From contig CP182352.1 of NCBI GenBank assembly GCA_048571215.1, positions 928,001 through 992,000 on the forward strand: 64,000 nt of DNA, given 5' to 3'. Positions within the stretch are counted from its first letter, which is position 1; the number at the start of each line of letters is the position of its first letter. Positions 14,366 through 43,587 of the stretch are shown here, one piece after another. Origin of the DNA: Halarcobacter sp. (lineage in GTDB: Bacteria; Campylobacterota; Campylobacteria; Campylobacterales; Arcobacteraceae). Below the pieces are notes generated by a model that was given only the letters and a program-made list of their open reading frames with translations, did no database searches and was not told the DNA's origin. The translations under genes were made by a program, and so were the position numbers.

Positions 14366-14432
14366 ATAAGTTCAATTAGTTATAGAGTTGTAATCTTTAG
14401 TTAATATTCTTTTTGATACACTTTTTCTAAAT

Positions 14433-14572
14433 TTATTTCTCAGGGCAAGGTGAAATTCCTTACTGGTGGTAACTATACTTAATAGAAGTCCACGAGCGCT
14501 TTATTTTATAAGGGTCAGCAGATTTGGTGTAAATCCAAAACCAACCGTAAAGTCGGGATGGAAGAGAAAATA
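14433..14572 (+). ncRNA. FMN riboswitch (RFN element)
   Basis: CTCAGGGCAAGGTGAAATTCCTTACTGGTGGT...CAGCAGATTTGGTG...AGTCGGGATGGAAGAG directly upstream of ribB. Confidence 0.95.
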
Positions 14573-14661
14573 ATATGTCTTTTTATTGTTAGATGATAAG
14601 GATAATATATTCTATTAGCCCTGATTCAATAAGTTTACTTAAAAACAAAGGTATAACTAAA

Positions 14662-28481: not shown

Positions 28482-28513
28482 TCAAGTTTTAGAGTGTTTT
28501 GGTGGGGTGGTAG

Positions 28514-28577
28514 TTATAACGTTGAGTTCTGCGGGAGCCGCGCTTTTTGCGGCTTCCGTAGAAACGATTTGTTAACT
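28514..28577 (-). other. attC site 1
   Basis: Minus strand AGTTAAC-AAATCG...GAAGCCGC AAAAA GCGCGGCTCC...TCAAC-GTTATAA, just after the ORF stop. Confidence 0.85.
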
Positions 28578-28580
28578 TAA

Positions 28581-28952
28581 TTATTTTTCTTTTATAAAGT
28601 CCCTAATGGCCTTTTCAAAAGCTTTTAATATCTTCGGACGTTGCTTGTTGCTTACCAATCCTTTAGGTAATTTTTCAAACCACCTTTGCATTTCGCCATG
28701 GTCTCCACCGTATTTCCACAATTCACTTTCTGGTATCTTGGTGCTCGGCTGAATTTTTCGGTCAAAGTGCTCTTTGCAAGCTAGTAATTGTTCAACGCAA
28801 TGAAATTCAAATGTGAAACCGCATTCTTTGACAAAATAAACATCGTAGGGGTCAATTATTTTGTCTCTGCCTTCTGGCGGATTAATTCCTTCACCCCACA
28901 TTTTATTTTTGTGTTTTATCTCGTCATATTTTTCAATCCAATGCTTTGACAT
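28581..28952 (-). CDS. Cassette-borne hypothetical protein
   Basis: ORF bounded by GTTAACT (29002-28996) and complementary AGTTAAC in attC 1. Confidence 0.75.
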   Translation of the reverse strand: MSKHWIEKYDEIKHKNKMWGEGINPPEGRDKIIDPYDVYFVKECGFTFEFHCVEQLLACKEHFDRKIQPSTKIPESELWKYGGDHGEMQRWFEKLPKGLVSNKQRPKILKAFEKAIRDFIKEK

Positions 28953-28995: not shown

Positions 28996-29035
28996 AGTTA
29001 ACTACTTATTGTAATACATTATATATAAATAATGT
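28996..29035 (-). other. attI-like leader copy 1
   Basis: Minus TATAATGTATTACAATAAGTA-GTTAACT; homologous to 35104 and 38916. Confidence 0.55.
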
Positions 29036-29256
29036 ATAAATTCACATAATAATATAACACTTTTAATGTTAAGATATTAAATTAACTAAAATCCCTTAAA
29101 TAAGGCAATTTCAATAAAATATTCTATAATATATTTTAATAAGTGATGTTTTTTATCATTTTTTTATATATTTGATTTAGTTTTTAATGTTAGATTATCA
29201 CGGTATATCCTTAATATCTTAACATTTTGTATGACTATTGGATGAAAATCTTAATA

Positions 29257-30287
29257 GTTTAACAAAATGATAAATATATTATATTGTGATTGGCTAAAAC
29301 TATTATCGAAATATTTGAATGTAAATAAACTTTTACTGTACGTCTTGGCTTTCTCGACTTTTTTTTGTGAAAAAAAAAGTAGCAAAAAAATCATCCCGCA
29401 GATTTCGAAGGCGGAAGCTCCCCTCTCTTATTATTCATCCCTTTTGAGTGACTAAAAACTTACTAAAACGTGAGTTTGTCACGTTTCTTTACGCTTCAAA
29501 CAGTTTAGTCACTTGTTTTCAAAAGAGATAAATAAACACTCGGCTTCTCAAATGCGGGAAGATGGGAAACTGACCTTTGCATTTTTTGGTACCATTTTTT
29601 TTGAATTGGTGTAATACTTAATTTATACAAAGAAAGTTTGCAGCTAGTGTATTTAGTCCAGACTTTGTTGAAGCCGGAAGTTTTCTAATTATTTTCGGAG
29701 AAGACCGAGGACCGTTCAACTGGATAAAAGGTACTAGATGTACCTTTTAGGAAGGCGTTCCGCAGGTCAGAAGATAATTAGAAAGCTGTAGGGAACTTTA
29801 GCTTCAACAACCGTCTGGTTGCTTTTTGCCATACTTTTTACAATTAAAAAGTATGAAAGCGGAGAACTTTGTTCTTCAAGACAATTGCATACAATAAAAA
29901 CTATTATCAAAATATTTGAGTGTAAATAAACTTTTACTGTACGTCTTAGCTTTCTCGACTTTCTTTTGTGAAAAAGAAAGTAGCAAAGAAACCATCCTGC
30001 GGGTTTCGAAGGCGGAAGCTCCCCGAGCTTTTCATTCATCCCTTTTGTGTGCCTAAAAACTTGCTCTTGTGCTTGCACTCTCTGTGAGAAAACGTTCTCC
30101 CAGAACGTTTCTTTACGCTTCAAACAGTTTAGTCACTTGTTTTCAAAAGAGATAAATAAACACTCGGCTTCTCAAATGCGGGAGAGTGGGATATTGACCT
30201 TTACATTTTTTGATACCATTTTGTTTAAGTTGCTGTTATACTCAACAATTATTATAAAAGTGGAGATTCATTTTCTGGGGGTGTCAC
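29257..30287. repeat. Structured repeat block 1 (units A-B-A plus GGGGTGTCAC end)
   Basis: About 1 kb direct-repeat homology to 35350-36367; nested hairpins; A approx 29296-29620 and 29897-30245, B approx 29633-29880. Confidence 0.9.
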
Positions 30288-30765
30288 TTATTTTTGTTGA
30301 AAGTAGATTCCTAATATTTTCAAAATCATTTTTAGATTTAAATGTAGCTTTAGCAATTGAAGATTTTCCGTTTGTATGGTGTATATTTAGAAATATCCCA
30401 TTACCAGCTTTGAATTCCTCTATCTTGCTAATTTGTGAAAAAGGCAACTCTATATGCTTAACCCCAGACCAAGAAAACTTTGGAACTACTATAGATTGCT
30501 CGTTGACAATAATCTTGCGTTTACCCTGAAGTAATGCAAATATCAGGAAGAAACCTAAAAGTACAAAAGCGGCACTAATAAGAAATAATACCCCATAAGC
30601 AACACTAGATATTTCTGGTGATAACCTAATTGATTTAAATAAAACCAAAACTGTATTGCCAGCTACGGCTTTAAGGAAAAAATGTTTTGCCGCTAACCCA
30701 AAGAAAATAATTACTATGGGAGGAACCCATAACATTTTTTTTAACTCAAATACTTGTTGGCTCAT
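30268..30765 (-). CDS. Cassette-borne hypothetical membrane protein lacking its attC
   Basis: Two TM, RBS AGGAG; last residues DTPRK come from the repeat-block end. Confidence 0.7.
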   Translation of the reverse strand: MSQQVFELKKMLWVPPIVIIFFGLAAKHFFLKAVAGNTVLVLFKSIRLSPEISSVAYGVLFLISAAFVLLGFFLIFALLQGKRKIIVNEQSIVVPKFSWSGVKHIELPFSQISKIEEFKAGNGIFLNIHHTNGKSSIAKATFKSKNDFENIRNLLSTKISDTPRK

Positions 30766-30779
30766 TTGAAACTCCTTTT

Positions 30780-30850
30780 AGCTAATGTTTAAAATGAGCA
30801 ATCAGTAACCCTTGCGTGGGTTACTAATTGGCTCCTCTGATTTGTTAAAT
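30780..30850 (-). other. attC site 2 (R' core reads ATTAGCT)
   Basis: Plus AGCTAAT-GTTTAAAATGAG-CAATCAGTAACCC...GGGTTACTAATTG-GCTCCTCTGATTT-GTTAAAT. Confidence 0.8.
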
Positions 30851-30854
30851 TTCT

Positions 30855-31130
30855 TCATAAATCATCGACCTCGACTTTTCCAAATTCTCCAGTGAGTCTT
30901 TCCAGTAATAGACCCAGAACTTCAAAGTACTCACCTGCTCGATGTGTACATAGTCCATATTCCTCTACTGCTAATTCGAATCTCATTGTTTTTCTATTGT
31001 ACTCACGAATTACCCAAAGTTGTCCATCGTAATCATATTTGCATGAAGTACAAAATTCAGCGAGGAATGCTTTAATTTCATTTGTATTGTTGTGTTCGAA
31101 TTTGAAGCTTTGTGCAAGACCCAATGTCAA
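30855..31130 (-). CDS. Cassette-borne hypothetical protein
   Basis: ORF filling the interval between attC 3 and attC 2. Confidence 0.65.
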   Translation of the reverse strand: MTLGLAQSFKFEHNNTNEIKAFLAEFCTSCKYDYDGQLWVIREYNRKTMRFELAVEEYGLCTHRAGEYFEVLGLLLERLTGEFGKVEVDDL

Positions 31131-31140
31131 TCCTTTTGTA

Positions 31141-31212
31141 GTTTAACGTTTGAAATGAGCAATCAAAAAGCCGCTCGCAGGTTTTTGATTGGTCTCCTCT
31201 AATTTGTTAGAC
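31141..31212 (-). other. attC site 3
   Basis: Plus GTTTAAC...CAATCAAAAA...TTTTTGATTG...GTTAGAC; ORF stop TAA lies in R''. Confidence 0.88.
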
Positions 31213-31767
31213 ATTGGGATTTTGATCATTTCTAAACTCTCTCACTATTTGTGGAGAACGAAGTTTCCAGATTATCCATCCGAAAAGTGCAGTAAATATT
31301 AAGACGAAAATAACTGAAGCGATTGACATCACGGTCATCATCGTCTCCATTTGAGACTGAAACTCTACGGGAGTATCAGGGGGCAATGGAAAGTCTTGAA
31401 TCATTGCTTCTTGGAAAACGAGACTTGCCAGATTTCAAATAATCCCAAGTGCCAGTAGTGCAATAAATGCAATTCGGGCCCAGTTTTTTCGTTTGAGGAG
31501 ACCAATTGATGCAATGAGAACAAATAAAGAAACCAGAAATACTGCTAGGAAAATTAAATCAAAATGCTTGAACATAAACTGGGCTATTTCAGGAACTGGG
31601 ACTGAACTGTTACTTTCATTCATTAGTTCTTCCACTGGCAGTTTAGGCATAATAAATTGAAACATGATATTTTGCAAGGCAGTAATAAATGTTCCAAATC
31701 CTGCAAATACGATTCCTATCCATGCTAATGCTGTAATAAATGTTGATTTTGAATTTTCTGCTGCCAA
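31207..31767 (-). pseudogene. Cassette membrane protein split by an in-frame TGA
   Basis: 31435..31767 and 31207..31404 are in one frame: ALGII*NLASLVFQEAMIQD. Confidence 0.75.
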
Positions 31768-31780
31768 CTTATTTTCCTTT

Positions 31781-32370
31781 GTCTAACGTTTAAAATGAGC
31801 CGATGAATTGCCCGCAGGGTAATTTATTAGCTCCTCTGAGATTGTGAAAGAACTCAGTCTCAATTTATATAAATATTCTACATAAAAACACTTAAAAATA
31901 ATCATCCTAAAAATACTAAAATGTTATAATATATTATATTTTAATAGATGAGAATAATATAGCAAGAGCAATTGATTCTTATGTTGAGATATTAAATATT
32001 CATAAGCTAAATATAAAAACTAAAAAATCATTAATAACAGATGGTCAAGCTGCATTTCATCCAAAACTACTATTAAAAATATATATTTATGGATATTTAA
32101 ATCTTGTAAAGCCAAGAGGTGCTTTAGCATCACTCTCTTTGAAAAAAAGTTATGTATAGCAATAAAAAACAAAGATTTAACTCAAATTACAAAAGATATA
32201 GAGAAAAATATATCTTAGTGTTTGGACTTTATCTGGTTTATTATTTAGAATTTATTTTTTATTTTCAAATTTTTGTCAAAAAGTTAAGATATTTGGAAAA
32301 CTAATTGAGATTTTTACTGTAAATTTAGTTTATTTGGAACTAAATTCACAGTTTGACTGATTTGTTATCT
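31781..32370 (-). other. attC site 4, interrupted by IS remnant
   Basis: GTCTAAC...CTCCT-CTGA [insert] CTGA-TTTGTTATCT; removing the insert and one CTGA restores the family consensus. Confidence 0.8.
31840..32356 (+). mobile_element. IS1182-family remnant (internally deleted)
   Basis: Fragment DENNIARAIDSYVE...GQAAFHPKLLLKIYIYGYLN (31944-32102); imperfect IR ends GATTGTGAA / TTCACAGTTTGA; 4-bp CTGA duplication. Confidence 0.75.
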
Positions 32371-33196
32371 ATTTTTTTGTATTTAAATTCAATTCCTTAA
32401 CGGCAGTTATATAAGGTTCAAATTTTGTTCCATATTTTAGTGTAACTATATATCTAGGTTTGATTACTTTTTTATTATTATAATTTCTTATTGGTCGTAA
32501 TGACTTAAGAAAGTTACTATATTCAAGGGGAACATAAATCTCTTTTATACTTAAACCAGAAATATAACCATCAATTCCTTCGTCTGTATGTCTAACATTG
32601 ATTAGTCCTTTTGCAATAATATATTTTGATTTATCTTGATATTTAGATCTTAATATTTTTGGATTAATATTTGCATCAATTGCAAAAAGTCTAGAACGGT
32701 TAAATTGCTCATCTTTCAAGTCTTTTATTGCATGTTTTAACTTTTGTTTATCTTTTTTTTCTGTAGAGTTTAGTTCTTGTAATTCTTTGACCTTATTTTT
32801 TGCTAATGCTAATGAATCTTGATATGACTTACCGTCATATTCTAGAACAATAAACACTTCTTTTTCAATACTTCTAAAAAAATTAAAACCATTATTTTTT
32901 TTAAAGTTATTTTCAATATCAAAACCAAGACTTTTTAGTTTTTGCGTTGTAAGCCATAGTGTCTGGTTATTATAAGAAAAGTTATTTTGAATTCTCCAAT
33001 TAAGTTTTAATGAAATGGCATTATTTTCATTTCTATTTCGATATGGAAGTTTTAACTCTCGTTCCGTAAGAGATACTTCTGAACTAGGTAAGTCTGCTCT
33101 ATTAATAAAAACTCCATATAAAATTACAATATTTGAAATGATAATTAAAGCAAAAGCTAAAATAAATAACTTATTTGAATTAAAAAAATATTTCAT
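32369..33196 (-). CDS. DUF4824-like protein (cassette gene 2)
   Basis: LTERELKLP, WL...KL..LGF, SRLFAIDA, YG..FEP. Confidence 0.7.
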   Translation of the reverse strand: MKYFFNSNKLFILAFALIIISNIVILYGVFINRADLPSSEVSLTERELKLPYRNRNENNAISLKLNWRIQNNFSYNNQTLWLTTQKLKSLGFDIENNFKKNNGFNFFRSIEKEVFIVLEYDGKSYQDSLALAKNKVKELQELNSTEKKDKQKLKHAIKDLKDEQFNRSRLFAIDANINPKILRSKYQDKSKYIIAKGLINVRHTDEGIDGYISGLSIKEIYVPLEYSNFLKSLRPIRNYNNKKVIKPRYIVTLKYGTKFEPYITAVKELNLNTKK

Positions 33197-34269
33197 GAGA
33201 ATACCTTTTCATCATTTTCAATAACAGATAATCGTAATTTTTTAAATACAAATAATACAATTAGTGCCGATAAGCCTATTAAGAAAAAGAAAATGTATTT
33301 TGGCATCCAATCCCACCACCAATCAAAAAACTTTGTGTATAAAAATATAGTAAAAAATATATTCCCAGTATTTACTACATCTGATAAGTTCTTTTTTATT
33401 CCAAACCAAATCATCAAAGCACTCATACTAAAACCAATCATTTGATACATTGCTTCAATATAATCTATTTCAAAATTTAAATAACTTATCATTCCCCAAT
33501 TCGATAGAATCAATACAGGAAGAAAAAATATAATCATCCCAAAAACTCTATAAATAACATCAAAACCATCATAACGATGATGTTTAATAAATGAAATAAA
33601 AAACAATAAAATGGCAACAGGTAAAAAATGTTCAGGTCTTTCTCCAAACCCAATCCAGTACATACCACTCCATGTTCCAATTTTTGCCGATAGAAAAGCA
33701 GAAAAGCTTAAAATTGCAAATGCTAGCAGTAACCTCGCATTAATAGCGTACGCTAATAATAATGCAAATATTGACCATACCAACAAAGCATTTGCAGATG
33801 GAGTAATATTAAATATTTGTCCAAGCATGGAAATATTAAGTACAAAACAAACGAAACTTAGTAATCCAAATATTTTTGAAAAATAGCTTGTTTTCTCCTT
33901 TTTAGAAAGATACATAGCTACTATCAAAGTAATAATTGGTGTTATTACCAATATTATTACTTGAATTGTAGTAGATAATACACCCCAAAATTGATAAAAA
34001 AGAAAAAATACACTTGCAGATAACCCAAGAGCACCTAAGAACGATGCTATTTTCATCCCTAAACTTAATTGTTTTTTGTGATGATTTGAATCGATATCAA
34101 ATGTTGATATAAGCTTAGTAATAAGGCTTTTGTGATAATTCTGTATATTGGTATATTGTGTTTTTTCAAGAGTAACAATATTTTCTTTTTCAAGTATTTG
34201 TAGTTCTTTTTGAAATTGATTGATTTGATCAACTCTTTGTTGTGCTTCAATTTTAGATTTTATATTCAT
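33193..34269 (-). CDS. DUF2157-like membrane protein (cassette gene 1)
   Basis: AQQRVDQI, LGQIFNI, FFDWWWDWMPKY; overlaps next gene by 4 nt. Confidence 0.75.
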   Translation of the reverse strand: MNIKSKIEAQQRVDQINQFQKELQILEKENIVTLEKTQYTNIQNYHKSLITKLISTFDIDSNHHKKQLSLGMKIASFLGALGLSASVFFLFYQFWGVLSTTIQVIILVITPIITLIVAMYLSKKEKTSYFSKIFGLLSFVCFVLNISMLGQIFNITPSANALLVWSIFALLLAYAINARLLLAFAILSFSAFLSAKIGTWSGMYWIGFGERPEHFLPVAILLFFISFIKHHRYDGFDVIYRVFGMIIFFLPVLILSNWGMISYLNFEIDYIEAMYQMIGFSMSALMIWFGIKKNLSDVVNTGNIFFTIFLYTKFFDWWWDWMPKYIFFFLIGLSALIVLFVFKKLRLSVIENDEKVFS

Positions 34270-34300
34270 TATTTATTGTAACTCCTGAGAATATTTATTT

Positions 34301-34372
34301 AGATAATGTTTGAAATGAGTAATCAAAAAGCCGCCCGCGGGTTTTTGATTGGTCTCCTCTGATTTATTATAA
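34301..34372 (-). other. attC site 5 (both cores mutated)
   Basis: Nearly identical to attC 3 but ends read AGATAAT and ATTATAA on plus. Confidence 0.8.
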
Positions 34373-34612
34373 GTCTGGTGTGTGTTGCAAGAAATTGATT
34401 TCATTTGCTTTCTCAATATCTCCAATTCTTAGGTAGTGAATCAGCTTTTTCAATTCATTGTCTTGGAATATTCTATAGTCAATGTCCTTTGCACGAATAT
34501 CTTCATCAGAAAAATAATGGGGGAGATATGCAAATACACCATCCAATGAGTTGTCATAAAGCTCTTCAACAGTACATTCAGTGTGTTTTACACTCTCTTG
34601 ATGGTTTAACAT
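34367..34612 (-). CDS. Cassette-borne hypothetical protein (5' end uncertain)
   Basis: ORF between attC 6 and attC 5, stop in R''. Confidence 0.6.
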   Translation of the reverse strand: MLNHQESVKHTECTVEELYDNSLDGVFAYLPHYFSDEDIRAKDIDYRIFQDNELKKLIHYLRIGDIEKANEINFLQHTPDL

Positions 34613-34666
34613 TCTTTCCAGTAAATCAGCTAGTTGAAGATATTGGATAGCGAACCCCTTTTTGAC

Positions 34667-34735
34667 TTATAACGTTTGAATTGAGGAATATTTGAGCCGC
34701 AGGGTCAAATATTCCTCTCCAATGATTTGTTAGCC
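34667..34735 (-). other. attC site 6
   Basis: Plus TTATAAC...GAGGAATATTTGA gccgcaggg TCAAATATTCCTC...GTTAGCC. Confidence 0.88.
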
Positions 34736-35097
34736 ACACCAGTATATATTTCAGAGGGAGGGTAACCTTCTGACTCTGCATAAAACTTATTTCCATTCTT
34801 CTCAATCACCAAATAACCTCCTCCCCCATGAGCCATCATACTTTTTGAGGCTTGATCCCATGTCAGTTCTTCCATTCGACCTGTCAAATCGAAAAAAATA
34901 CAATCATCTTGATCCACAAAGCCGATTTTTTCATATGCAAACTGTTTGGGAAAAACATCTGAAATACTATGACAAATTTTTCTCATCAATTTTTCGGGCT
35001 TTTTTAACGCATCAACAACACATCGTGATTGGTAGTCTTTGAGGACAAAATTTGAAGCAAATCGTTCAATACTTTGTTGTGTAATCATATAATCCAC
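34705..35097 (-). CDS. Cassette-borne hypothetical protein reading into attC
   Basis: Starts after GTTAGCC (35110-35104); C-terminal NKSLERNI is attC-encoded. Confidence 0.7.
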   Translation of the reverse strand: MDYMITQQSIERFASNFVLKDYQSRCVVDALKKPEKLMRKICHSISDVFPKQFAYEKIGFVDQDDCIFFDLTGRMEELTWDQASKSMMAHGGGGYLVIEKNGNKFYAESEGYPPSEIYTGVANKSLERNI

Positions 35098-35103
35098 CTC
35101 ATA

Positions 35104-35150
35104 GGCTAACTATTTATTGAATATACATTATATAAATAAAGTACTTAAAT
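35104..35150 (-). other. attI-like leader copy 2
   Basis: Minus TATAATGTATATTCAATAAATA-GTTAGCC. Confidence 0.55.
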
Positions 35151-35349
35151 ATGCTACTTTATTATATATTTATCAAGAAAACTTATTTTATGCATGTTTA
35201 TAGAAATAATATTATGTAATATAATATTTATTCTATATATCTTTATTATAAGTTATAATCTTTATGTATATTTTATGTCGATATTTAGAACTTTAATATA
35301 TATAATGTATGTTAAAAGTAAGAATTTAACTTTAAATAACATTTTGATT

Positions 35350-36367
35350 GTTTAACAAAATGATAAATATATTATGTGTATTTGGATAATACTATTATCA
35401 AAATATTTGAGTGTAAATAAACTTTTACTGTACCTCTTGGCTTTGTCGACTTTCTTTTGTGAAAAAGAAAGTAGCAAAGAAACCATCCCACAGGTTTCGA
35501 AGCCGAAGGTTCCCTCGCTTATTATTTCACTTTTCTATTTTTTAAAACTCGCTAAAACGTAAGTTAGTTACGTTTTTGACACTCAGACAGTTAAAAAACT
35601 TTTGCCTGCAAGCAGGATTACATCCGAAAAGCAAAATAAACACTCGGCTTCTCAAATGCGGGAAGGTGGGATAATGACCTTTTCATTTTTTGGTACCATT
35701 TTGTTTGGATTTGTGTAATACTCAAATAGTATGAGAAAGTTCAAGGCTAGGGTATTTTAGTCCAGACTTTGTTGAAGCTGGAAGTTTTTTAATTATTTTC
35801 GGAGAAGACCGAGGACCGTTCAACTGGATAAAAGGTACTGAATGTACCTTTTAGGAAGGCGTTCCGCAGGTCAGAAGATAATTATAAAACTGGAGGGAAC
35901 TTTAGCTTCAACAACCGTCTGGCTGCTTTTTGTCTTACTTTTTACAACTAAAAAGTGAGAAAGCGGAGAGCTTTGCTCTACAAGAGGGTGTATACAATTA
36001 AAACTATTTTCAAAATATTTGAGTGTGAATAAACTTTTACTGTACGTCTTAACTTTACCGACTTTCTTTTGTGAAAAAGAAAGTAGCAAAGAAACCATCC
36101 CACAGGTTTCAAAGCCGAAGGTTCCCTCGCTTATTATTCATCCCTTTTGAGTGCCTAAAAACTTGCTAAAACGTGAGTTAGTCACGTTTTTTTACGCTTC
36201 AAACAGTTTATTCACTTGTTTTCAAAAGAGACAAATAAACACTCGGCTTCTCAAATGCGGAAAGGTAGGAAATTGACCTTTGCATTTTTTGATACCATTT
36301 TATTTGAATTGGTGTGATACTCAACAATTATTATAAAAGTGGAGATTCATTCTCTGGGGGGTGTCAC
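35350..36367. repeat. Structured repeat block 2 (A-B-A plus GGGGTGTCAC end)
   Basis: Homologous to 29257-30287, including a 26-bp identical start GTTTAACAAAATGATAAATATATTAT. Confidence 0.9.
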
Positions 36368-36663
36368 CATTAAATTGCAATGGATATTTCTATATTTGAG
36401 CTATGCTTTTTGTGAGTTTTCAAATTGCTTTGCATCATCTATTGAACGCTTTGATATGTTTTATAAATAATTTTATATAGTCTATTCATCTCTTTTTTTG
36501 CAAATGTAGATGTATTTTCACTGCACATAGCAACAACCGTATTATTTATTTGACCTTCTTTATGAATACGATCATTGTAAATTTTCTCATATTTATTTTT
36601 TGTTTCAGTAAATAAAATAAAAGGCATTAATGCAATAAGTAATAGTAAATTTGTGACCTTCAT
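36368..36663 (-). pseudogene. LprI/DUF1311-like cassette gene, frameshifted and truncated
   Basis: AKKEMNRLYK, then in another frame FENSQKA*LKYRNIHC (SQxAWxxYR..C motif). Confidence 0.65.
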
Positions 36664-36682
36664 AGATTACTCCTTTGTATCA

Positions 36683-36734
36683 ATATAACGCCTGCCTCAG
36701 CCGCTGAAGATCGGATTAGAGTCTCTTGTTAGCC
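36683..36734 (-). other. attC site 7 (short/degenerate)
   Basis: Minus GGCTAACAAG...CAGGC-GTTATAT, 52 bp. Confidence 0.55.
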
Positions 36735-37107
36735 ATTTTCTAGTTATTATAGGCAACCATGTAGCCCCTATAGCACACAGCTGAAAATAGGTTAACCGGT
36801 ACGGGTGAGCCCAGCCACCCGAGTAGCCAACATCAAAAGCCAGCCACACAACAAATGTGGAACTTGAAGCCAAAGCCACAATCAGCACCCTTTCTGGAAA
36901 TCTCAGTACAGCAAAACCCTCTAATACCGCCAATACTCCGAACCACGCTGTAAAAAAGCCTAAGGTTAGCCCCCAGGAATACCCACCTCTGTATTCTCTA
37001 CCTATAGCTTCCGCCACGAAGTGGCCGACTCCATATATCGCGGTCAGAAGAAGCACCCTGATTATTGGCCGTAACAAAAGCAGATAAACTATGCGCTTTG
37101 TCATCAC
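36697..37107 (-). CDS. Cassette-borne membrane protein, GC-richer than host
   Basis: About 4 TM segments, between attC 8 and attC 7. Confidence 0.7.
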
Positions 37108-37143
37108 GATTAACCTTTGAAATAAGCCGATAAATTGTTATTC
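37108..37143 (-). other. attC site 8 (internally deleted)
   Basis: GATTAAC-CTTTGAAATAAGCCGATAAATT-GTTATTC matches both ends of the attC 4 type with the centre missing. Confidence 0.6.
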
Positions 37144-37144
37144 A

Positions 37145-37387
37145 TTAGAAGTCAGAGAGTACAGAGATTATCACGTGTGGCTCAGAACTTTCAGATTTTC
37201 CAAATTTTAAGGAAGATTGACCATCTGATGTACGAACTTTTGTAGCCTCGGAAATACTTATATCATTAATTTCAAGAATACGAAACATATGTCCTTTAGC
37301 TTGGAAAATCTCATCTTCTGTATAGCAAAGTACATCAGAATTTGATGGTAAAGACTGAAGCTTAGTTAATAAATCGGAAACTTTCAT
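37145..37387 (-). CDS. Cassette-borne hypothetical protein
   Basis: RBS AAGGA, between attC 9 and attC 8. Confidence 0.65.
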   Translation of the reverse strand: MKVSDLLTKLQSLPSNSDVLCYTEDEIFQAKGHMFRILEINDISISEATKVRTSDGQSSLKFGKSESSEPHVIISVLSDF

Positions 37388-37411
37388 GTAAATCCTTCTT
37401 ATAATTTTAGT

Positions 37412-37480
37412 GTATAACGTCTAAGTTGAGAAATATTTGAGCCACAGAATCAAATATTTCTCCCCCATGATTTGTTATAT
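37412..37480 (-). other. attC site 9
   Basis: Plus GTATAAC...GAGAAATATTTGA gccacagaa TCAAATATTTCTC...GTTATAT; same family as attC 6. Confidence 0.85.
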
Positions 37481-38892
37481 AGTTTAATCATTATGATACT
37501 TTTACCTATCAGTCCTAATAATGATATAACAATTGAACTTAGCATTAAATAGCCGATATCTGGTACAAACATTAAAAATCCGCTAAATGTTAAATTATAC
37601 AACTTGGGTATAATAAAAAATAGTGAGATGATAATTGAAATATCAAATATAAATGATACTATTGTTCTATACTTTTTGACATCTTTATGCTTTTGAATAA
37701 ACTGTTTCATTAAAAATAATTGAACTATTAATAAACTGATAAAAAATACATATGCAGATATAGAGATAATATCTATAGTGGTATCTTTTAGTTCTTTATT
37801 TCTAATTATATCAATAATACCACCTGCTAGAGTGTTTAACTCATTACTGCCTAATGTATATGAAGTAGCATTTGTAAGCATAATAAGACCTAGTTTTTCT
37901 TCTGGAAATATAATCATTGAAGCTGTATATCCAGGGGCTGTTCCTAAATGATTTAAATAAAGTTTTTCACTAGTATCCACAAACCATCCAAAGCCATAAT
38001 GGATTTTACCCTTGACTATCGTAGCACTTGGTGTTTGTATTTGTTTAATAATAGAAGATGAAAATATCTGTTCTTTCTTATATTTTCCTTTATTTAACTG
38101 TGCAATTAAATAGTTGCTCATATCTTCAACATTTGAAATAATATATCCAGCAGGAAGTAAAACTTTACTAAATGGAAAATCACTTTTTATAGCTTGACCA
38201 AACCAAAGTCTATGTCCTTGTGCTATATTTTTTTTGTCAATATTCTCTAAAGAGGCATAACTATTTTTCATATCAAGTTTATTAAATATATTTTCTTTTA
38301 TATATTGATTATAAGAAAGCCCAGTTACTTTTTCTATAACTAAACCTAAAATTTGATAATTTATATTTGAATAATAAAAAGTGGTTGATGGCTTTGAAAT
38401 AAGTGAGACATCTTTTAACGCCCGAATAGTTTTTTCTAAAGCAAAATTACTACTATCCCAATCATCAAAATTTTTCAATCCATCATAAGTAGAAAATCCG
38501 CTGGTTTGGTTTAACAGTGTTCTAATAGTTATATTGTTGACATCTTTTTCATCTTTTATTTTAAACCAAGAAAGATACTTATTTATTGAATCATCCAAAT
38601 TAATTTTCCCATCTTCCACTAATTGCATAATTGCTAAGGCTATAAATGACTTGGTTAATGAGCCGATATAAAATAAAGATTTTGTATTTATATCTTTATC
38701 TTTAGAATAACTATTTTTATAAATTAAACTATTATCCTTTATAACCCCTATTGATATAGTAGGAATATCTGCTTGATTTTGCATTTTTTTAACATAGTTA
38801 TCAATTTTATTAAAAGTTTGAGTATCTATATTTTTAGCATTTAATTCAAAACAAAGAAATATAATAAAAATTAGTATAAATTTTATTTGCAC
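37450..38892 (-). CDS. Serine hydrolase (beta-lactamase class C/CubicO fold) with C-terminal TM helices, cassette-borne
   Basis: GSLTK, LLNQTSG, YSN, HLG; ends NKSWGRNI inside attC 9. Confidence 0.85.
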   Translation of the reverse strand: MQIKFILIFIIFLCFELNAKNIDTQTFNKIDNYVKKMQNQADIPTISIGVIKDNSLIYKNSYSKDKDINTKSLFYIGSLTKSFIALAIMQLVEDGKINLDDSINKYLSWFKIKDEKDVNNITIRTLLNQTSGFSTYDGLKNFDDWDSSNFALEKTIRALKDVSLISKPSTTFYYSNINYQILGLVIEKVTGLSYNQYIKENIFNKLDMKNSYASLENIDKKNIAQGHRLWFGQAIKSDFPFSKVLLPAGYIISNVEDMSNYLIAQLNKGKYKKEQIFSSSIIKQIQTPSATIVKGKIHYGFGWFVDTSEKLYLNHLGTAPGYTASMIIFPEEKLGLIMLTNATSYTLGSNELNTLAGGIIDIIRNKELKDTTIDIISISAYVFFISLLIVQLFLMKQFIQKHKDVKKYRTIVSFIFDISIIISLFFIIPKLYNLTFSGFLMFVPDIGYLMLSSIVISLLGLIGKSIIMIKLYNKSWGRNI

Positions 38893-38915
38893 TTATTGCA
38901 CCTCATATATTTTAT

Positions 38916-38962
38916 ATATAACTATTAATTAAATATACATTATATTAATTTATTACTTAAAT
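38916..38962 (-). other. attI-like leader copy 3
   Basis: Minus TATAATGTATATTTAATTAATA-GTTATAT. Confidence 0.55.
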
Positions 38963-39220
38963 AGCCTGATAACATAACATAATTAAACTAAGCCTTCAAA
39001 TAGGCTATTTGTATAAAAAAATATTCTAAAATGATATATCTTTTAAGTAAATTATAATGTTATATTATCATCTATATGTATAGTTTTTATCTAAATAACA
39101 GTAATAAACATGCAATTTGCATGTTATTTGGAATAAATCGTGATAATACTACATTTTAAGAAAATATAAAATGAGTGAAAAATTATTTGATATAATGAGA
39201 GATAAATTCTAAATATTCAC

Positions 39221-39673
39221 TTTTTTGCCTGCAAGCAGGATTACATATTGAAAAAAGTAAAACAAAAAGCAACCCGCAGGTTTCGAAGATGAAACTAGCC
39301 TCACTTATTATTTATTGCTTCTCAAATGCGGGAAGGTAGTATAAAGACCTTTGCATTTTTTGGTACCATTTTATTTAAGTTGGTGTTATGTTAAATTTAC
39401 ATCAGGAAGTTTGTGGCTAGTGTATTTTAGTCCAGACTTTGTTGAAGCCGAGTGCTTTGCTTTTTAAAGCGGAAAAAGCCGAAACTGTTTGAAGAAAGAA
39501 AAGTGACTAACTCACTTTTTCGAGGAGTTTTGCAGGCTAGCTTTAAAAAGTGAAGTGGGAGGGAACTTTAGCTTTAACAACGCGTCTGGTTGCTTTTTGT
39601 CTTACTTTTTACAACTAAAAAGTGAGAAAGCGGAGAACTTTGTTCTACAAGAGAGTGCATACAATTAAAACTA
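39221..39673. repeat. Structured repeat block 3 (partial A plus B)
   Basis: CCCGCAGGTTTCGAAG...GCTTCTCAAATGCGGG, then TAGTCCAGACTTTGTTGAAGCC...GTCTGG. Confidence 0.85.
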
Positions 39674-39717
39674 TCTATAAATCTATTTAACTATTTACTT
39701 AAATCATATTTTTCATA

Positions 39718-40161
39718 TCAATCAATCTCCAAAAAGTTTTCTTTTACTCTTTCTAATAGTTTACATAAAAGTTCTTTTTCCTCTTGAGTAAAATTTTTAT
39801 ATGTAATATCTAAAAGTTTTGGTGAGATAATATCCATAACTATAGGTTTTGTGCCAAGTCCTTTTTGTGTTAGTTTTACCATTGTACTTCTACTATCTTT
39901 TTCATTTTTAAATTTTATTAAAAGTTCCATTTTTTCAAGCTTGTTTACCAAAGCTGTTACTGTTGATTTATCTTTATTTATTGATTGGGTTATTTGACTC
40001 ATGGGAACACCATCTTTATTTTTATAAAGTAGATTTAAAATATTTCCATGGGAAGGGGCAAGTCCTATTAGGTCGTGTTTTTTTAATTCATCCATGATTA
40101 GTTTATTTGTACTATTGTGAATATGTCCTATAGTTGAGATTATTTCATTTGTATTTTTCAT
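39718..40161 (-). CDS. MarR family regulator
   Basis: DKSTVTALVNKLE...DSRS...LTQKG. Confidence 0.9.
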   Translation of the reverse strand: MKNTNEIISTIGHIHNSTNKLIMDELKKHDLIGLAPSHGNILNLLYKNKDGVPMSQITQSINKDKSTVTALVNKLEKMELLIKFKNEKDSRSTMVKLTQKGLGTKPIVMDIISPKLLDITYKNFTQEEKELLCKLLERVKENFLEID

Positions 40162-40227
40162 TAGTTTTATATCCTACTATTTTCTATTGAAAGGATAACT
40201 ATATTTTGTTTAAAGTAATGAAAAGTA

Positions 40228-41088
40228 TTAAAACTTTCCATTACTATTTGCCCATTTATCTTTGGTAGGAATCTCTTGAATAGTATCCCAATGCTCTACA
40301 ATTTTGTCATTTTCAATTCTAAACAAATCGTAAAATGAATAAGGTTTTCCATGCCATGAACCTTCACTAATGGTTAGTACAAAATTACCTTCACCTAATA
40401 CTTTATGAAGTTTTTTATAAGTAAACATATCGTTTTTAGAGATTAGATAAGTGATTGCCTCATTTAAACCTGCCAAACCATCTTTTATATAAGGGTTATG
40501 TTGATCATATTTTTCAGTTGAGATATAATCTGTAATTTTATTTGGATTTTTACCAAAGAATATATCTTCAAAAAGCTTTTTAACTAAAGTTTTATTTTCA
40601 TCAGTTTTATCTAAATCTGTAATCTTAGTTTCCCCATCGATTTGAGTTCTTCCACTTGCTGTATTTTTAACTATATCTTGTAGATTATCCCAATGTTCTA
40701 CTATTTTCCCATCTTCAAATCTAAAGATATCAAACCCAACTTTTGCCCCAAAGAAGTTATACTTTGTATGGGTAAAAACATAATTTTCATCCTCAAAAGC
40801 TCTAACTACTTTTACACTTGAACTTCCTTTTGGCAACATTGCAACAACTTCACCAAAACCTTTCAAACCATCTTTTATTGATAAGTTATGTTGTATATAT
40901 TTATCTGGATTAATATAATTTATAGGCTCAGTTGCTCCTGTTTCTATTGAATTTAGTAGTTCAATCACTTTTTGTTTGTTTGTAAGCATTTTTGGCTCCT
41001 TTTTTTGTTCTGCTGTATATGCACATCCTGAAAAAATTGAAGCAGTTATAACTCCTGCTAGTAGCTTTTTTATATCGATTGTTTTCAT
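40228..41088 (-). CDS. SnoaL/NTF2-like tandem-domain lipoprotein
   Basis: Lipobox FSGC; duplicated Y.QHN and D.FR.E..KIVEHWD. Confidence 0.85.
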   Translation of the reverse strand: MKTIDIKKLLAGVITASIFSGCAYTAEQKKEPKMLTNKQKVIELLNSIETGATEPINYINPDKYIQHNLSIKDGLKGFGEVVAMLPKGSSSVKVVRAFEDENYVFTHTKYNFFGAKVGFDIFRFEDGKIVEHWDNLQDIVKNTASGRTQIDGETKITDLDKTDENKTLVKKLFEDIFFGKNPNKITDYISTEKYDQHNPYIKDGLAGLNEAITYLISKNDMFTYKKLHKVLGEGNFVLTISEGSWHGKPYSFYDLFRIENDKIVEHWDTIQEIPTKDKWANSNGKF

Positions 41089-41103
41089 TTTTGATCCTTT
41101 AAA

Positions 41104-41161
41104 AGTTTGATATCAAACTAAATATTAAAGGAATTATAGTTTGATATCAAACTAAAGTCAA
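41104..41161 (-). promoter_or_regulatory. Sigma70 promoter with two perfect palindromic operators
   Basis: AGTTTGATATCAAACT at 41104-41119 and 41138-41153; minus TTGACT-17 bp-TATAAT. Confidence 0.8.
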
Positions 41162-41257
41162 GAGTTTTTGAAAAGAATTGTGAAATTTTTAATATTATTG
41201 ATTTTTATTTTTGTATGAATTGATTGTTGTGCTAGATTCTATTTGTTGTTATGTCAT

Positions 41258-41345
41258 TTATTTTTTCTCAAACGCAAGCTTTATCCCTAAACAAATCAAA
41301 ACTGTACCACTTGTACGATTGATTCATTTTAGTACAGATTCATTA
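41258..41345 (-). pseudogene. LysE/RhtB-like C-terminal remnant
   Basis: SVLK*INRTSGTVLICLGIKLAFEKK*. Confidence 0.5.
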
Positions 41346-41583
41346 TTCAGGACCTTTGGATTTTTTATACCATTTTATTCGAATTGGTGTAATACTTAAA
41401 AAGCATTCTAAAAGTTTGAGGCTAGGGTATTTAGTCCAGACTTTGTTGAAGCTGGAACTTTTTCTTTTTTTATGGTGAAAAGTGAGGACGTGTTTGAGCG
41501 TAAAAAAGAGTGACTAACTCACTCTTTTAGCGAGTTGCCACCTTAAAAGAATATAAAAATTCCATATAAAATTTATAATAAAA

Positions 41584-42555
41584 TTAAATTTTTTCTGAAT
41601 CATATGGTACATTATTTTTATATACGGCATGAGCAATAACTAATAGTTTTCTCATAATTGCTACTTGTATAACTGTAGTATGTTTTCCATTTTCTTTTAG
41701 TCTATCATAAAACTTTCTTAATCTTTCGTTATTTCTTATTGATGTCATTGCTGGCATAAACAAAGTACCTCTACATATTTTTGAACCTGCTTTTGATATT
41801 TTTGTTTTTCCATTAACTGATATACCTGAACTTTTTTCTATTGGATCTAATCCTGCTAAAGATACTATCTGTTTTTGATTAGCATTTTTATATTGAATAA
41901 AATGTATAAGTAATACAATTGAAGATATTTCTCCTATACCATCAATTGTTTGCAAATTATTAAATGATTGTTGAAGTTTCTCATCTTTTTTTATGATTGA
42001 TTTTATTTTTTTGATAATTTTTTGTTCTTGTTTTTTTAAAAATTGATTTTGTAATTCAAACTCTTTTATCAAATAGCTTTTATCTTTTTTTGCTTTTAAA
42101 GCAGCTATATGGTTTTTAGTTATAACTTGTTGTTTAATAATTAATTTATATCCAGAAATAAGCTCTTTTAATTCTTCTTCTATGGTATCTACAATAGGTA
42201 TTTTAATATCTTTATCTTTAGCTGTAACAATCATTTTAGATAAAAGCTGTGCATCTTTTATATCATTTTTATTTCTATATCCCATTACTTTTGCAAAGCT
42301 AGCACTTTTTTTAGGATTTACTATAAAGCTTTTTATATTTTTGTTTGCACAAAACTGTTTTAAAAGAAATGAATAATTAGCTGTTGGTTCATAAACAAAT
42401 ACTAATTTATCTATCTCTTTTTTATAAAGCTTTTTTAGTTTAGAGTACAAACTTTTTATTCCATTTAAACTATTATCAATAATTAAATCTAAATCATTTA
42501 TTGGAATATAAACATTAATTGTTGACTTACTTACATCTAATCCGATAGAATACAT
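41584..42555 (-). CDS. IS110 family DEDD recombinase/transposase
   Basis: IGLDVSK, YEPT, KND..DA, GIG, AGLDP...SSG, MRKL. Confidence 0.95.
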   Translation of the reverse strand: MYSIGLDVSKSTINVYIPINDLDLIIDNSLNGIKSLYSKLKKLYKKEIDKLVFVYEPTANYSFLLKQFCANKNIKSFIVNPKKSASFAKVMGYRNKNDIKDAQLLSKMIVTAKDKDIKIPIVDTIEEELKELISGYKLIIKQQVITKNHIAALKAKKDKSYLIKEFELQNQFLKKQEQKIIKKIKSIIKKDEKLQQSFNNLQTIDGIGEISSIVLLIHFIQYKNANQKQIVSLAGLDPIEKSSGISVNGKTKISKAGSKICRGTLFMPAMTSIRNNERLRKFYDRLKENGKHTTVIQVAIMRKLLVIAHAVYKNNVPYDSEKI

Positions 42556-42614
42556 TTCTAGAACCTTTATTTTAGGATAAAGAGTTCGTTAGGGTAGGAT
42601 TTCTCCTACCTGAT

Positions 42615-42805
42615 AATTGTTATACAAACTTTAGACTTATAAAATACGAACTAGTTATAAAACTGTTCTTGTTGCCACTCAAATTTAAAGTATAACTATC
42701 AAACTCGCCATCAAGCTAATTATAAATTATTTTTTATAATTGCTTTAGTTCCGCAACGATATATTATCTTTCAAACTCTTTGGAAATATATTAACTATAT
42801 TCCCT
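42615..42805 (-). ncRNA. Predicted IS110 bridge RNA
   Basis: 5' hairpin, then two internal loops whose segments match the reconstructed target and donor junctions. Confidence 0.8.
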
Positions 42806-43587
42806 TAAATGTATTATATAAGTCCCGCAACGCAATAAAAAAATAGAAAGTGGAAGGTAGCTTTGCCTTCAACAACGCGTCTGGTGGCTTTTGTTTTACT
42901 TTTACCACTAAAAGTAAAGAAAGCGAAGAACTTGTTCTTCAAGACAACTGCATACAATAAAAACTATTTTCAAAGTATTTGAATGTAGTTAAACTTTAAC
43001 TGTACCTCTTGGTTTTTTCGACTTTTTTTATGAAAAAAAAGTAGCAAAAAATCACCCGCGGGGTTTCGAAGGCGGAAGCTCCCCTCGCTTATTATTTATT
43101 ATTTCTGTTTTGTCTTGTGCTTGCACTCTCTTTGAGAAAACTCACATAAAAATATGCTCCCAGCATATTTGTTCTGTTCAAACAGTTACAAAACTTCTCC
43201 GAAACAATAAATAAACACTCGGCTTCTCAAATGCGGGAAGGTGGGATAATGATCTTTGCATTTTTTGATACCATTACATTCAAAATTACTGTGATACTCA
43301 ATATCTATTTTAAAAGTTTGTGGCTAGTGTATTTAGTCCAGACTTTGTTGAAGCCGGAAGGTTTTTAATTATTTTCGGAAAAGCCTGAGAATGTTTGAGG
43401 AGAGAAAAGTGACTAGATGTCACTTTTTCGACGAGTTTCGCAAGGCAGAAAATAATTAAGAACCTGTAGGGGACTTTAGCTTTAACAACCGTCTGGTGGC
43501 TTTTCTCAAAGAGAGTGTAAACACAGGTTTTACTTTTACCACTAAAAGTAAAGGAAGCGAAGAACTTTGTTCTTCAAGATAAAAAAC

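Follow-up and report, generated by a model that had tools for sequence, protein, structure and literature searches.

What are the large, foldable repeats that recur in alternating orientation between positions 29,296 and 43,581 of a 64,000-nucleotide (nt) stretch of Halarcobacter sp. DNA (assembly GCA_048571215.1, contig CP182352.1, positions 928,001 to 992,000; hereafter the window)? A first-pass annotation, made from the letters alone, distinguished A units on the forward strand from B units on the reverse strand and proposed either a structured non-coding RNA (ncRNA) or a non-autonomous element folding as single-stranded DNA, in the manner of REPINs (repetitive extragenic palindrome (REP) doublets forming hairpins) or MITEs (miniature inverted-repeat transposable elements). 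Of these two branches the DNA branch fits best and the ncRNA branch is less likely: A and B make up the two arms of a doublet repeat of about 450-600 bp that contains no gene, faces inward and recurs in several phyla, and it is moderately probable that this doublet is a REPIN-like, selfish and non-autonomous element of folded DNA, moved by a trans-acting enzyme encoded elsewhere. The DNA branch is preferred because the repeats form inward-facing doublets, are intergenic and devoid of genes, are distributed patchily among relatives, serve as targets of IS110 insertion sequences (ISs) and feature loops of DNA type.

One architecture in A and B

The repeats are real, but what is conserved in them is shorter than the 250-330 bp first assigned, since the core spans only about 200 nt. 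In order, it comprises a hairpin, an A-rich linker, a closing stem of 5-6 bp, a second stem and a three-way junction with a side hairpin, beyond which it continues as a long variable stem, an internal loop whose two sides are near-invariant, and a tip hairpin that varies. The motif region AAG(T/C)TCCC, originally described as a bulge, exists but constitutes the three-way junction with its small covarying side hairpin. As had been proposed, A and reverse-complemented B follow one architecture, and a single covariance model, termed R1, recovers both; its alignment comprises 26 mostly B-type copies from this genome and ten relatives. With DNA parameters, the folds of units A1 and B1 beat every shuffle (z -4.05 and -7.97, respectively).

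The observation that stems vary in sequence yet stay complementary is borne out by two-sided changes in two independent alignments, namely at 43 of 57 pairs among the 26 R1 copies and at 26 of 49 pairs in a GC-rich alignment of 29 rows from distant copies. The stem hexamers quoted at the outset, CCCGCA/TGCGGG in A (29395 and 29553) and CCAGAC/GTCTGG in B (29658 and 29813), are present. Among the 26 copies, 86.8% of cells are paired, as against 71.4% in shuffled alignments and at most 62.3% with slid partners; because the structure was picked on that same alignment and the copies are related, this support is strong but does not amount to a probability. None of 500 shuffles scored as high as the real covariation. 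Selection on the fold, the conclusion drawn in the first-pass annotation, is upheld insofar as the fold is kept despite sequence change, but part of the compensation may reflect templating from arm to arm or from copy to copy. Stems occur as whole-block alleles shuffled among copies, and templated repair or gene conversion may account for some of the paired changes. Templating would not hold unpaired loops constant, so the constant loops point to recognition by a protein.

The initial inventory of five full A units, one partial A and five B units was recovered in its entirety. A1 (29296-29621, forward strand; folded core 29350-29558) faces B1 (29631-29885, reverse strand; core 29658-29861) and is followed by A2 (29897-30249, forward), which has an insert of ~23 nt near its tip. 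Further along lie A3 (35388-35728, forward, with an insert of ~20 nt), B2 (35735-35995, reverse) and A4 (36000-36328, forward), then A5 (about 39216-39390, forward), whose central rod is deleted, and B3 (39404-39662, reverse). B4 is split by an IS110 element into a distal half (41410-41537) and a proximal half (42821-42947), both on the reverse strand, with an A-tail fragment preceding the former at about 41351-41405. A6 (42960-43302, forward, insert of ~23 nt) and B6 (43312-43581, reverse, insert of ~23 nt in the linker) complete the series. The full copies are A1, A2, A3, A4 and A6 among the A units and B1, B2, B3 and B6 among the B units.

A genome-wide count shows that the family extends beyond the window. 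The genome (3.61 Mb, 28.5% GC) holds 79 non-overlapping matches, 47 A and 32 B, of which 50 are near-full; they are grouped in 28 clusters of at most six units, for which no clear replichore bias emerged. Adjacent units form 42 pairs, two of them A-A and 40 of opposite sense, and the latter divide into 24 inward-facing and 16 outward-facing junctions, the outward ones lying inside tandem arrays. Contigs of public sediment runs, two of which (X1, X2) may be the source sample itself, include unique parts, and the summed depth on the repeats is about tenfold or higher, which argues that the repeats are not an assembly artefact.

Three small inserts of 17-23 nt sit in T/A tracts of A2, A3, A6, B6 and elsewhere. 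All 14 exact insert copies in the genome (7, 6 and 1) lie inside or beside units, and one insert also matches many unit-less genomes of the same family and order.

Inward-facing doublets and their distribution

Outside this genome, five Betaproteobacteria contain 80 matches, 50 of which form 25 close pairs, and all 25 pairs face inward; in the Betaproteobacterium G311 each of the 14 matches is paired. More inward pairs occur at loci L212 (Bacteroidota), L218 (Planctomycetota) and L150 (Saccharibacteria) as well as at L157, L164 and L193. The spacers of the doublets are variable, and one or two accessory open reading frames (ORFs) are enclosed at L187, L194, L172 and L305.

Within the family Arcobacteraceae, R1 is positive in 55 of 151 genomes and 12 of 22 genera, and copy number ranges from none up to 16 or more. 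The same model, which is AT-rich and narrow, yielded no unit in 144 genomes from other families of the phylum. Distant membership was assessed with a second covariance model, R2, made solely from GC-rich copies of Proteobacteria and Nitrospira, which share the same architecture, and including no copy from the Arcobacteraceae. Its top ranks are eight units of the window (E 3.2e-12 to 1.2e-5), all in the expected orientation; A5 and B6 score weakly because of the deletion in the former and the insert in the latter. The tip motif is common to all R2 rows by construction, and the A units, which lack this pattern, are still recovered. A sequence-only profile of the GC-rich copies did not recover the window units. 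Full-length R2 matches (70 loci given) come from Bacteroidota, Planctomycetota, Nitrospira, Gastranaerophilales, Saccharibacteria, Lachnospiraceae, Eggerthellaceae and Ralstonia. The exact tip pattern occurs in at least 127 stretches of the species-genome collection, and the matches listed include Beta- and Gammaproteobacteria, Nitrospira, Bacteroidota and others; many pattern matches in Patescibacteria, Myxococcota, Deltaproteobacteria and gut taxa were not counted as members, as they comprise the tip only. Among plasmids and phages, the window pair found no match, a Gallionella unit matched nine plasmid records and no phage, and a Dechloromonas pair matched 130 records, 124 of them from Ralstonia.

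The designation as an unclassified family agrees with the Rfam scan of the repeats, in which no family reached its gathering score and the matches below it were at chance level, but it probably does not hold in full, since the supplement of PMC6429828 (Stav et al. 2019) contains two computational motifs of matching description, ffRNA-1 and ffRNA-2. Their seeds are two intergenic regions of ~750 nt in an Arcobacter genome, and they comprise 4460 and 621 sequences, respectively, in several copies per genome and without a common neighbour gene, mostly from Beta- and Gammaproteobacteria but also from some Epsilon- and Deltaproteobacteria, Bacteroidetes, Actinobacteria and Firmicutes (PMC6429828). 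The published structure, a long P1 stem with conserved internal loops and, by the wording of the supplement, an extra stem, resembles that of the units, as do the many copies per genome, the absence of a common neighbour and the host range. By published wording, then, the unit is likely the ffRNA-1/ffRNA-2 motif, and the motif is probably already in print as an orphan RNA. Unlike the present doublets, the two were published as single RNA motifs, inward pairs, DNA-type loops and IS110 targeting being absent from the text, and the word 'integron' does not occur in 11 supplements of that paper. A literature search, PMC8632094 and PMC2864571 included, turned up no account of the doublet, of its DNA nature or of its targeting by IS110, subscription papers and further supplements possibly differing in this respect. 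What the present analysis adds is the cross-phylum model test, the count of 25 inward pairs out of 25, the loop-strand test, and inversion and collapse at the strain level.

With REPINs and bacterial interspersed mosaic elements (BIMEs), as outlined in PMC3337134, the units share the character of gene-less, intergenic and mainly chromosomal inverted doublets with a variable spacer that are targeted by IS110. The inverted arrangement is found in 25 of 25 close pairs and at 24 inward junctions of this genome, and tandem arrays (up to six units), decay to single units and collapsed forms are likewise in keeping with REPINs. In contrast to the short REP palindromes of tens of bases, however, the units are branched rods of ~200 nt, each of which folds by itself; their range spans several phyla, and no RAYT gene (REP-associated tyrosine transposase, of the Y1 HUH type) flanked by copies was found among the Y1 loci considered below. 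A MITE is a non-autonomous element with inverted ends. The doublet resembles one in being non-autonomous, 450-600 bp long and bounded by inverted homologous ends, with one or two accessory ORFs enclosed in some pairs, but it differs from a MITE in that neither target-site duplication nor sharp terminal repeat was found, nor a partner transposase with the same ends. The outer arms of the doublet are inverted homologues, and an IS with these ends was not found.

Several features of the doublets' surroundings were noted in addition. Ralstonia doublets (L318 at 2020-2140; flanks of L327-L333) are bordered by G/T-rich and C/A-rich low-complexity DNA, and in one Ralstonia strain an 11-nt unit beside the doublet end is expanded about twelvefold. 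Doublet spacers in Niveibacterium and Sulfuricella (L296, L292, L295, L299, L304) carry other small palindromic repeats.

Folded DNA, host site or RNA

If the doublet is a selfish DNA element, folded single-stranded or cruciform DNA would be recognised by an enzyme encoded elsewhere, and the element would spread through a trans-acting strand-transfer enzyme, by analogy with REPIN and RAYT. Amplification of pairs has given rise to tandem A-B-A-B arrays in this genome, and stem modules are exchanged among copies. Variation at the level of sites is seen in Ralstonia chromids, where a first site is full-length in 101 of 135 records and short in the others (three short forms examined), while a second site contains the inner part in both orientations plus two collapsed forms. 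At orthologous loci in the genus of the window, the unit is present in 6 of 14 species at one site and in 1 of 13 at the window's right flank.

The nature of the substrate is indicated by pair types and loops. Were the unit an RNA made from a single strand, G.U pairs should be in excess. Departures of the G.T and A.C kinds are balanced (179 versus 190 cells), and pair-type counts (19 versus 25 and 18 versus 13) reach no significance either way. Of 141 distinct pattern matches among distant copies, 60 have a C[TNC]G tip loop and none a C[GNA]G one; these counts take in related genomes. The side hairpins of distant copies exhibit the same strand preference (32 of 55 versus 0). As judged from sequence, the C[TNC]G loops are GNA triloops closed by C-G on the strand opposite to A, and GNA triloops are described as especially stable in DNA (PMC3201870). 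On balance, the substrate is considerably more likely to be folded DNA than RNA.

A number of observations weigh against a mobile DNA doublet. Close pairs are absent among the 14 matches of G312, a fragmented assembly, and G313; 16 Betaproteobacterial pairs revealed no target duplication and no sharp end. The two Ralstonia sites likewise lack a target duplication or a clean empty site, and their short forms resemble decay or old loss, although doublet sites may be too old for a target duplication to show. That small plasmids and phages hardly ever carry the unit, and that 6 of 14 species retain it at a single orthologous locus, is also consistent with a function for the host. The single Y1 transposase copy of this genome has no unit nearby; a unit lies near only 1 of 25 Y1 loci in repeat-rich relatives and near none of nine in Betaproteobacteria, and no Y1 match exists in 9 of 24 repeat-rich relatives or in G311. 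With respect to the substrate, the strand opposite to A folds better by both parameter sets, the A strand being superior in 10 of 59 family cores and 21 of 130 distant copies with DNA parameters and in 0 of 59 and 18 of 130 with RNA parameters; energy therefore does not separate DNA from RNA. Moreover, the one-strand loop rule fails in the Arcobacteraceae, whose tip loops are mostly of 5 nt and in which GAA or AAA is a frequent side-hairpin loop of the A strand. Finally, in three relatives the right flank of the window has an orphan integron attachment site (attI) but no unit, which means that the attI module there does not depend on the repeat.

The search for a mobilising enzyme, for which linkage to RAYT/HUH transposases had been suggested, found no such link. 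The sole Y1 locus with a unit (L342) is, by our estimate, about what chance would give in a genome of 16 or more copies, and RAYT/Y1 was rejected as mobiliser on the present data. A search for Y2 transposases of the IS91 family matched none of 28 genomes, the control genomes being equally silent; a possible resemblance between the B tail and origins of the IS91 family was set aside, as distant copies are devoid of that tail. No gene family recurs among 464 ORFs beside distant copies, where RAYT, IS110 and IntI queries also gave no matches. Pfam annotation of 95 ORFs near units, 22 in the window and 73 of 90 elsewhere in the genome (ten outside the retrieved loci being left out, and six IS110 copies and one unit-overlapping ORF dropped), disclosed no recurring mobiliser; the families found are cassette-type and housekeeping, with one phage integrase beside a unit fragment.

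The lack of an identified enzyme is among the points in favour of a different explanation, according to which the repeat is a domesticated chromosomal site similar to a BIME, either bound by a host protein as extruded DNA or acting on read-through mRNA, and dispersed by ordinary recombination and gene conversion with no dedicated transposase. Such a site would also account for orthologous intergenic positions kept across species, for positions between co-directional genes of metabolic operons, for the near absence from phages and small plasmids, and for mosaic stems and inner inversions. It is unlikely, however, given that copy number varies from none to 16 or more within one family in which 55 of 151 genomes are positive, that R1 finds nothing in the 144 sampled genomes of other families of the phylum while the repeat recurs in distant phyla, and that sites collapse in some strains.

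Slightly more doubtful is a free-standing structured ncRNA, as in the ffRNA proposal, which would most likely be read from the strand opposite to A and would spread or act as RNA. Covariation is strong, RNA parameters favour folding of the opposite strand in all 59 family cores and in 112 of 130 distant copies, and the authors of PMC6429828 proposed for ffRNA-1 and ffRNA-2 either a diffusible RNA or a part of a selfish element. An RNA is at odds, on the other hand, with GNA triloops that accept any middle base, as is typical of DNA, with the lack of a G.U excess on either strand, with inverted pairs that are obligatory in some genomes and outer ends that differ among hosts, and with the absence of a reverse transcriptase among the Pfam-scanned neighbours in this genome.

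IS110 targets and integron remnants

The repeat itself appears to be exploited by other elements. All seven IS110 copies of the genome lie inside units. Three near-identical copies occupy the invariant loop of B-type units, and four of a second type, with proteins 63% identical to those of the first, reside in the linker of A. The copy in the window (41537-42820, reverse strand, ORF 41584-42555) interrupts the most conserved motif of B4, and the non-coding end of this first type matches its target. In repeat-rich relatives, 20 of 27 retrieved IS110 loci, two of which overlap, hold a unit or unit halves. IS621, a member of the IS110 family, targets REP elements by means of a bridge RNA (PMC11208160). 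The present insertions resemble this case in that IS110 enters a host repeat at one set position and has a target match in its non-coding end, and differ in that two IS110 types hit two points of a much larger repeat. Since six relatives (G065, G084, G126, G027, G165, G173) have at least 12 units and no IS110 match (E 1e-6), IS110 elements appear to exploit the repeat rather than to maintain it, and IS110 as the agent of spread is not needed at present.

A second association concerns the integron. The genome has one intI and 24 attC sites (26 profile matches, two of them double); eight attC sites are located in the window, about 60 kb away from intI. As many as 22 attI-like sites share the core of the attI beside intI, and 17 of them, facing away, have the 5' end of an A unit at a distance of at most 340 nt (0.002 expected by chance per site). 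The DNA between attI and unit is the intI leader, 87% identical over 330 nt at the best site, and at five places this leader ends in a clear intI stub of the first 8-13 codons; a sixth and more decayed one occurs in the window. Conversely, no unit lies within 1.5 kb of any of 30 intact intI loci. The suggested linkage to intI is accordingly seen with intI stubs and orphan attI sites but not with intact intI.

Three attI-leader-repeat modules follow one another in the window, each with different cassettes. In the leftmost, the orphan attI-like site (29000-29036, reverse strand) includes a -10-like box, shares the core of the intI-side attI and faces away from the repeat, while the leader between it and A1 (29037-29295) is 68% identical over 195 nt to that of intI (E 6.5e-5). 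Its first cassette consists of an ORF of 123 amino acids (aa) (28581-28952, reverse) with no Pfam family and an attC (28513-28578, reverse), a profile match whose R'' end complements the bases that follow the crossover of attI. Behind the second site (35108-35145, reverse, score 29.9) lies a cassette array (30268-35097, reverse) with five attC sites (30781-30849, 31143-31211, 31782-31849, 34302-34371, 34669-34733). The third site (38920-38957, reverse, score 16.6) precedes an array (36335-38892, reverse) with attC sites at 36680-36751 and 37413-37479, the first cassette of which encodes a beta-lactamase-family serine hydrolase of 480 aa (37450-38892, reverse). On the other side of this site, the intI stub of the window (39171-39212, forward), aligned to the start of intact intI, comprises 13 codons before a stop and runs into the repeat.

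These arrays correspond to CALINs (attC-site clusters with no integron-integrase) as defined in PMC4889954, having at least two attC cassettes distant from the single intI of the genome. They differ from CALINs in retaining an attI-like site, the leader of intI and, in many cases, a 5' stub of intI that is fused to the repeat; the survey in that paper was directed at C-terminal intI pseudogenes, which lay close to 15 of 279 CALINs (PMC4889954).

The possibility that the repeat is an integron part, that is, an IntI substrate or a component making orphan attI platforms, gains something from the 17 of 22 attI-like sites that adjoin an A unit, the 17 of 28 unit clusters that carry attI and the position of the window's cassette arrays between repeat groups, but is very improbable in view of the 30 unflanked intact intI loci, four complete relatives (G006, G012, G018, G023) with units and no intI match, the three relatives with orphan attI but no unit, 11 of 28 clusters without attI, and the lack of IntI relatives among the 464 ORFs beside distant copies. 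In keeping with this, none of the 24 attC sites of the genome is a unit, and the R''/L''/L'/R' boxes in a simple hairpin are not found in the repeat. Taken together, the unflanked intact intI, the attI sites without unit, the clusters without attI and the units without intI argue that the repeat is an older, independent element which appears to have been joined to intI starts in this lineage.

The joining would have occurred at the 5' end of intI by insertion or deletion, with more than one type of junction, and copies of the attI-leader-repeat module would then have been dispersed over the chromosome, to be filled with cassettes by the one intact IntI. Comparison with intI gives a suggestive indication that the 5' arm of A is a decayed intI start (mean z 1.81, 9 of 22 above 2). 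The A tail as a decayed intI 3' end was considered and found unsupported (mean z 1.28, 3 of 22 above 2).

A combined scenario, put forward only tentatively, would have large REPIN-like DNA doublets across phyla form one class, whose movement depends on a transposase or recombinase family that has so far been associated with no repeat. The doublets would capture accessory genes between their halves and sustain a specialised clade of RNA-guided IS110 parasites of their own; in the Arcobacteraceae they would have displaced intI and multiplied the attI module, so that one integron became a genome-wide network of about twenty live docking sites. If the preferred reading of a folded-DNA doublet is right, a motif once catalogued as an orphan RNA would be one of the most widespread unexplained repeat families of bacteria and a DNA element whose enzyme awaits discovery, and the models R1 and R2 would make both the search for that enzyme and the question of DNA versus RNA testable. 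It would further show in concrete terms how cassette arrays without an integrase come about and remain loadable, and would offer a natural collection of IS110 bridge RNAs that target different points within a single safe-harbour repeat. Should the repeat instead be a host site or an RNA, it would still constitute a large conserved fold without known function.

Several minor features adjoin the integron remnants. Cassettes behind orphan attI sites elsewhere (L047, L044, L046, L054, L055) contain TIR-Mrr, HNH, Mrr and kinase genes, which are candidate defence genes. Within the cassette array of the window, the segment 31850-32300 is AT-rich, has a broken reading frame, is multi-copy in public runs and resembles an IS remnant. 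A CRISPR-like array at contig positions 3254141-3257550 has a repeat that includes 11 letters of the attI core. Directly downstream of the intact intI lies a long palindrome (895070-895175, L017), with relatives downstream of intI in L066, L081 and L085, which belongs to a different repeat family from the units.

A short end motif of ~30 nt trails terminal A units and is also found without them elsewhere in the genome. Its copies in the window are located at 30257-30290 (forward strand) and 36336-36368, and further ones occur in the contig at 385006, 388217, 548521, 549218, 809299, 810130, 2204763, 2554857, 2557866, 3395554 and 3396741; those without units are often doubled, 0.7-3 kb apart. 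On the cassette strand, the motif starts like the first half of an attC and forms the C-termini of two ORFs in the window. Between repeat groups, a MarR regulator and a SnoaL-like gene were assigned by Pfam (39718-41088, reverse strand), and the Rfam scan placed a flavin mononucleotide (FMN) riboswitch at 14432-14573 of the window.

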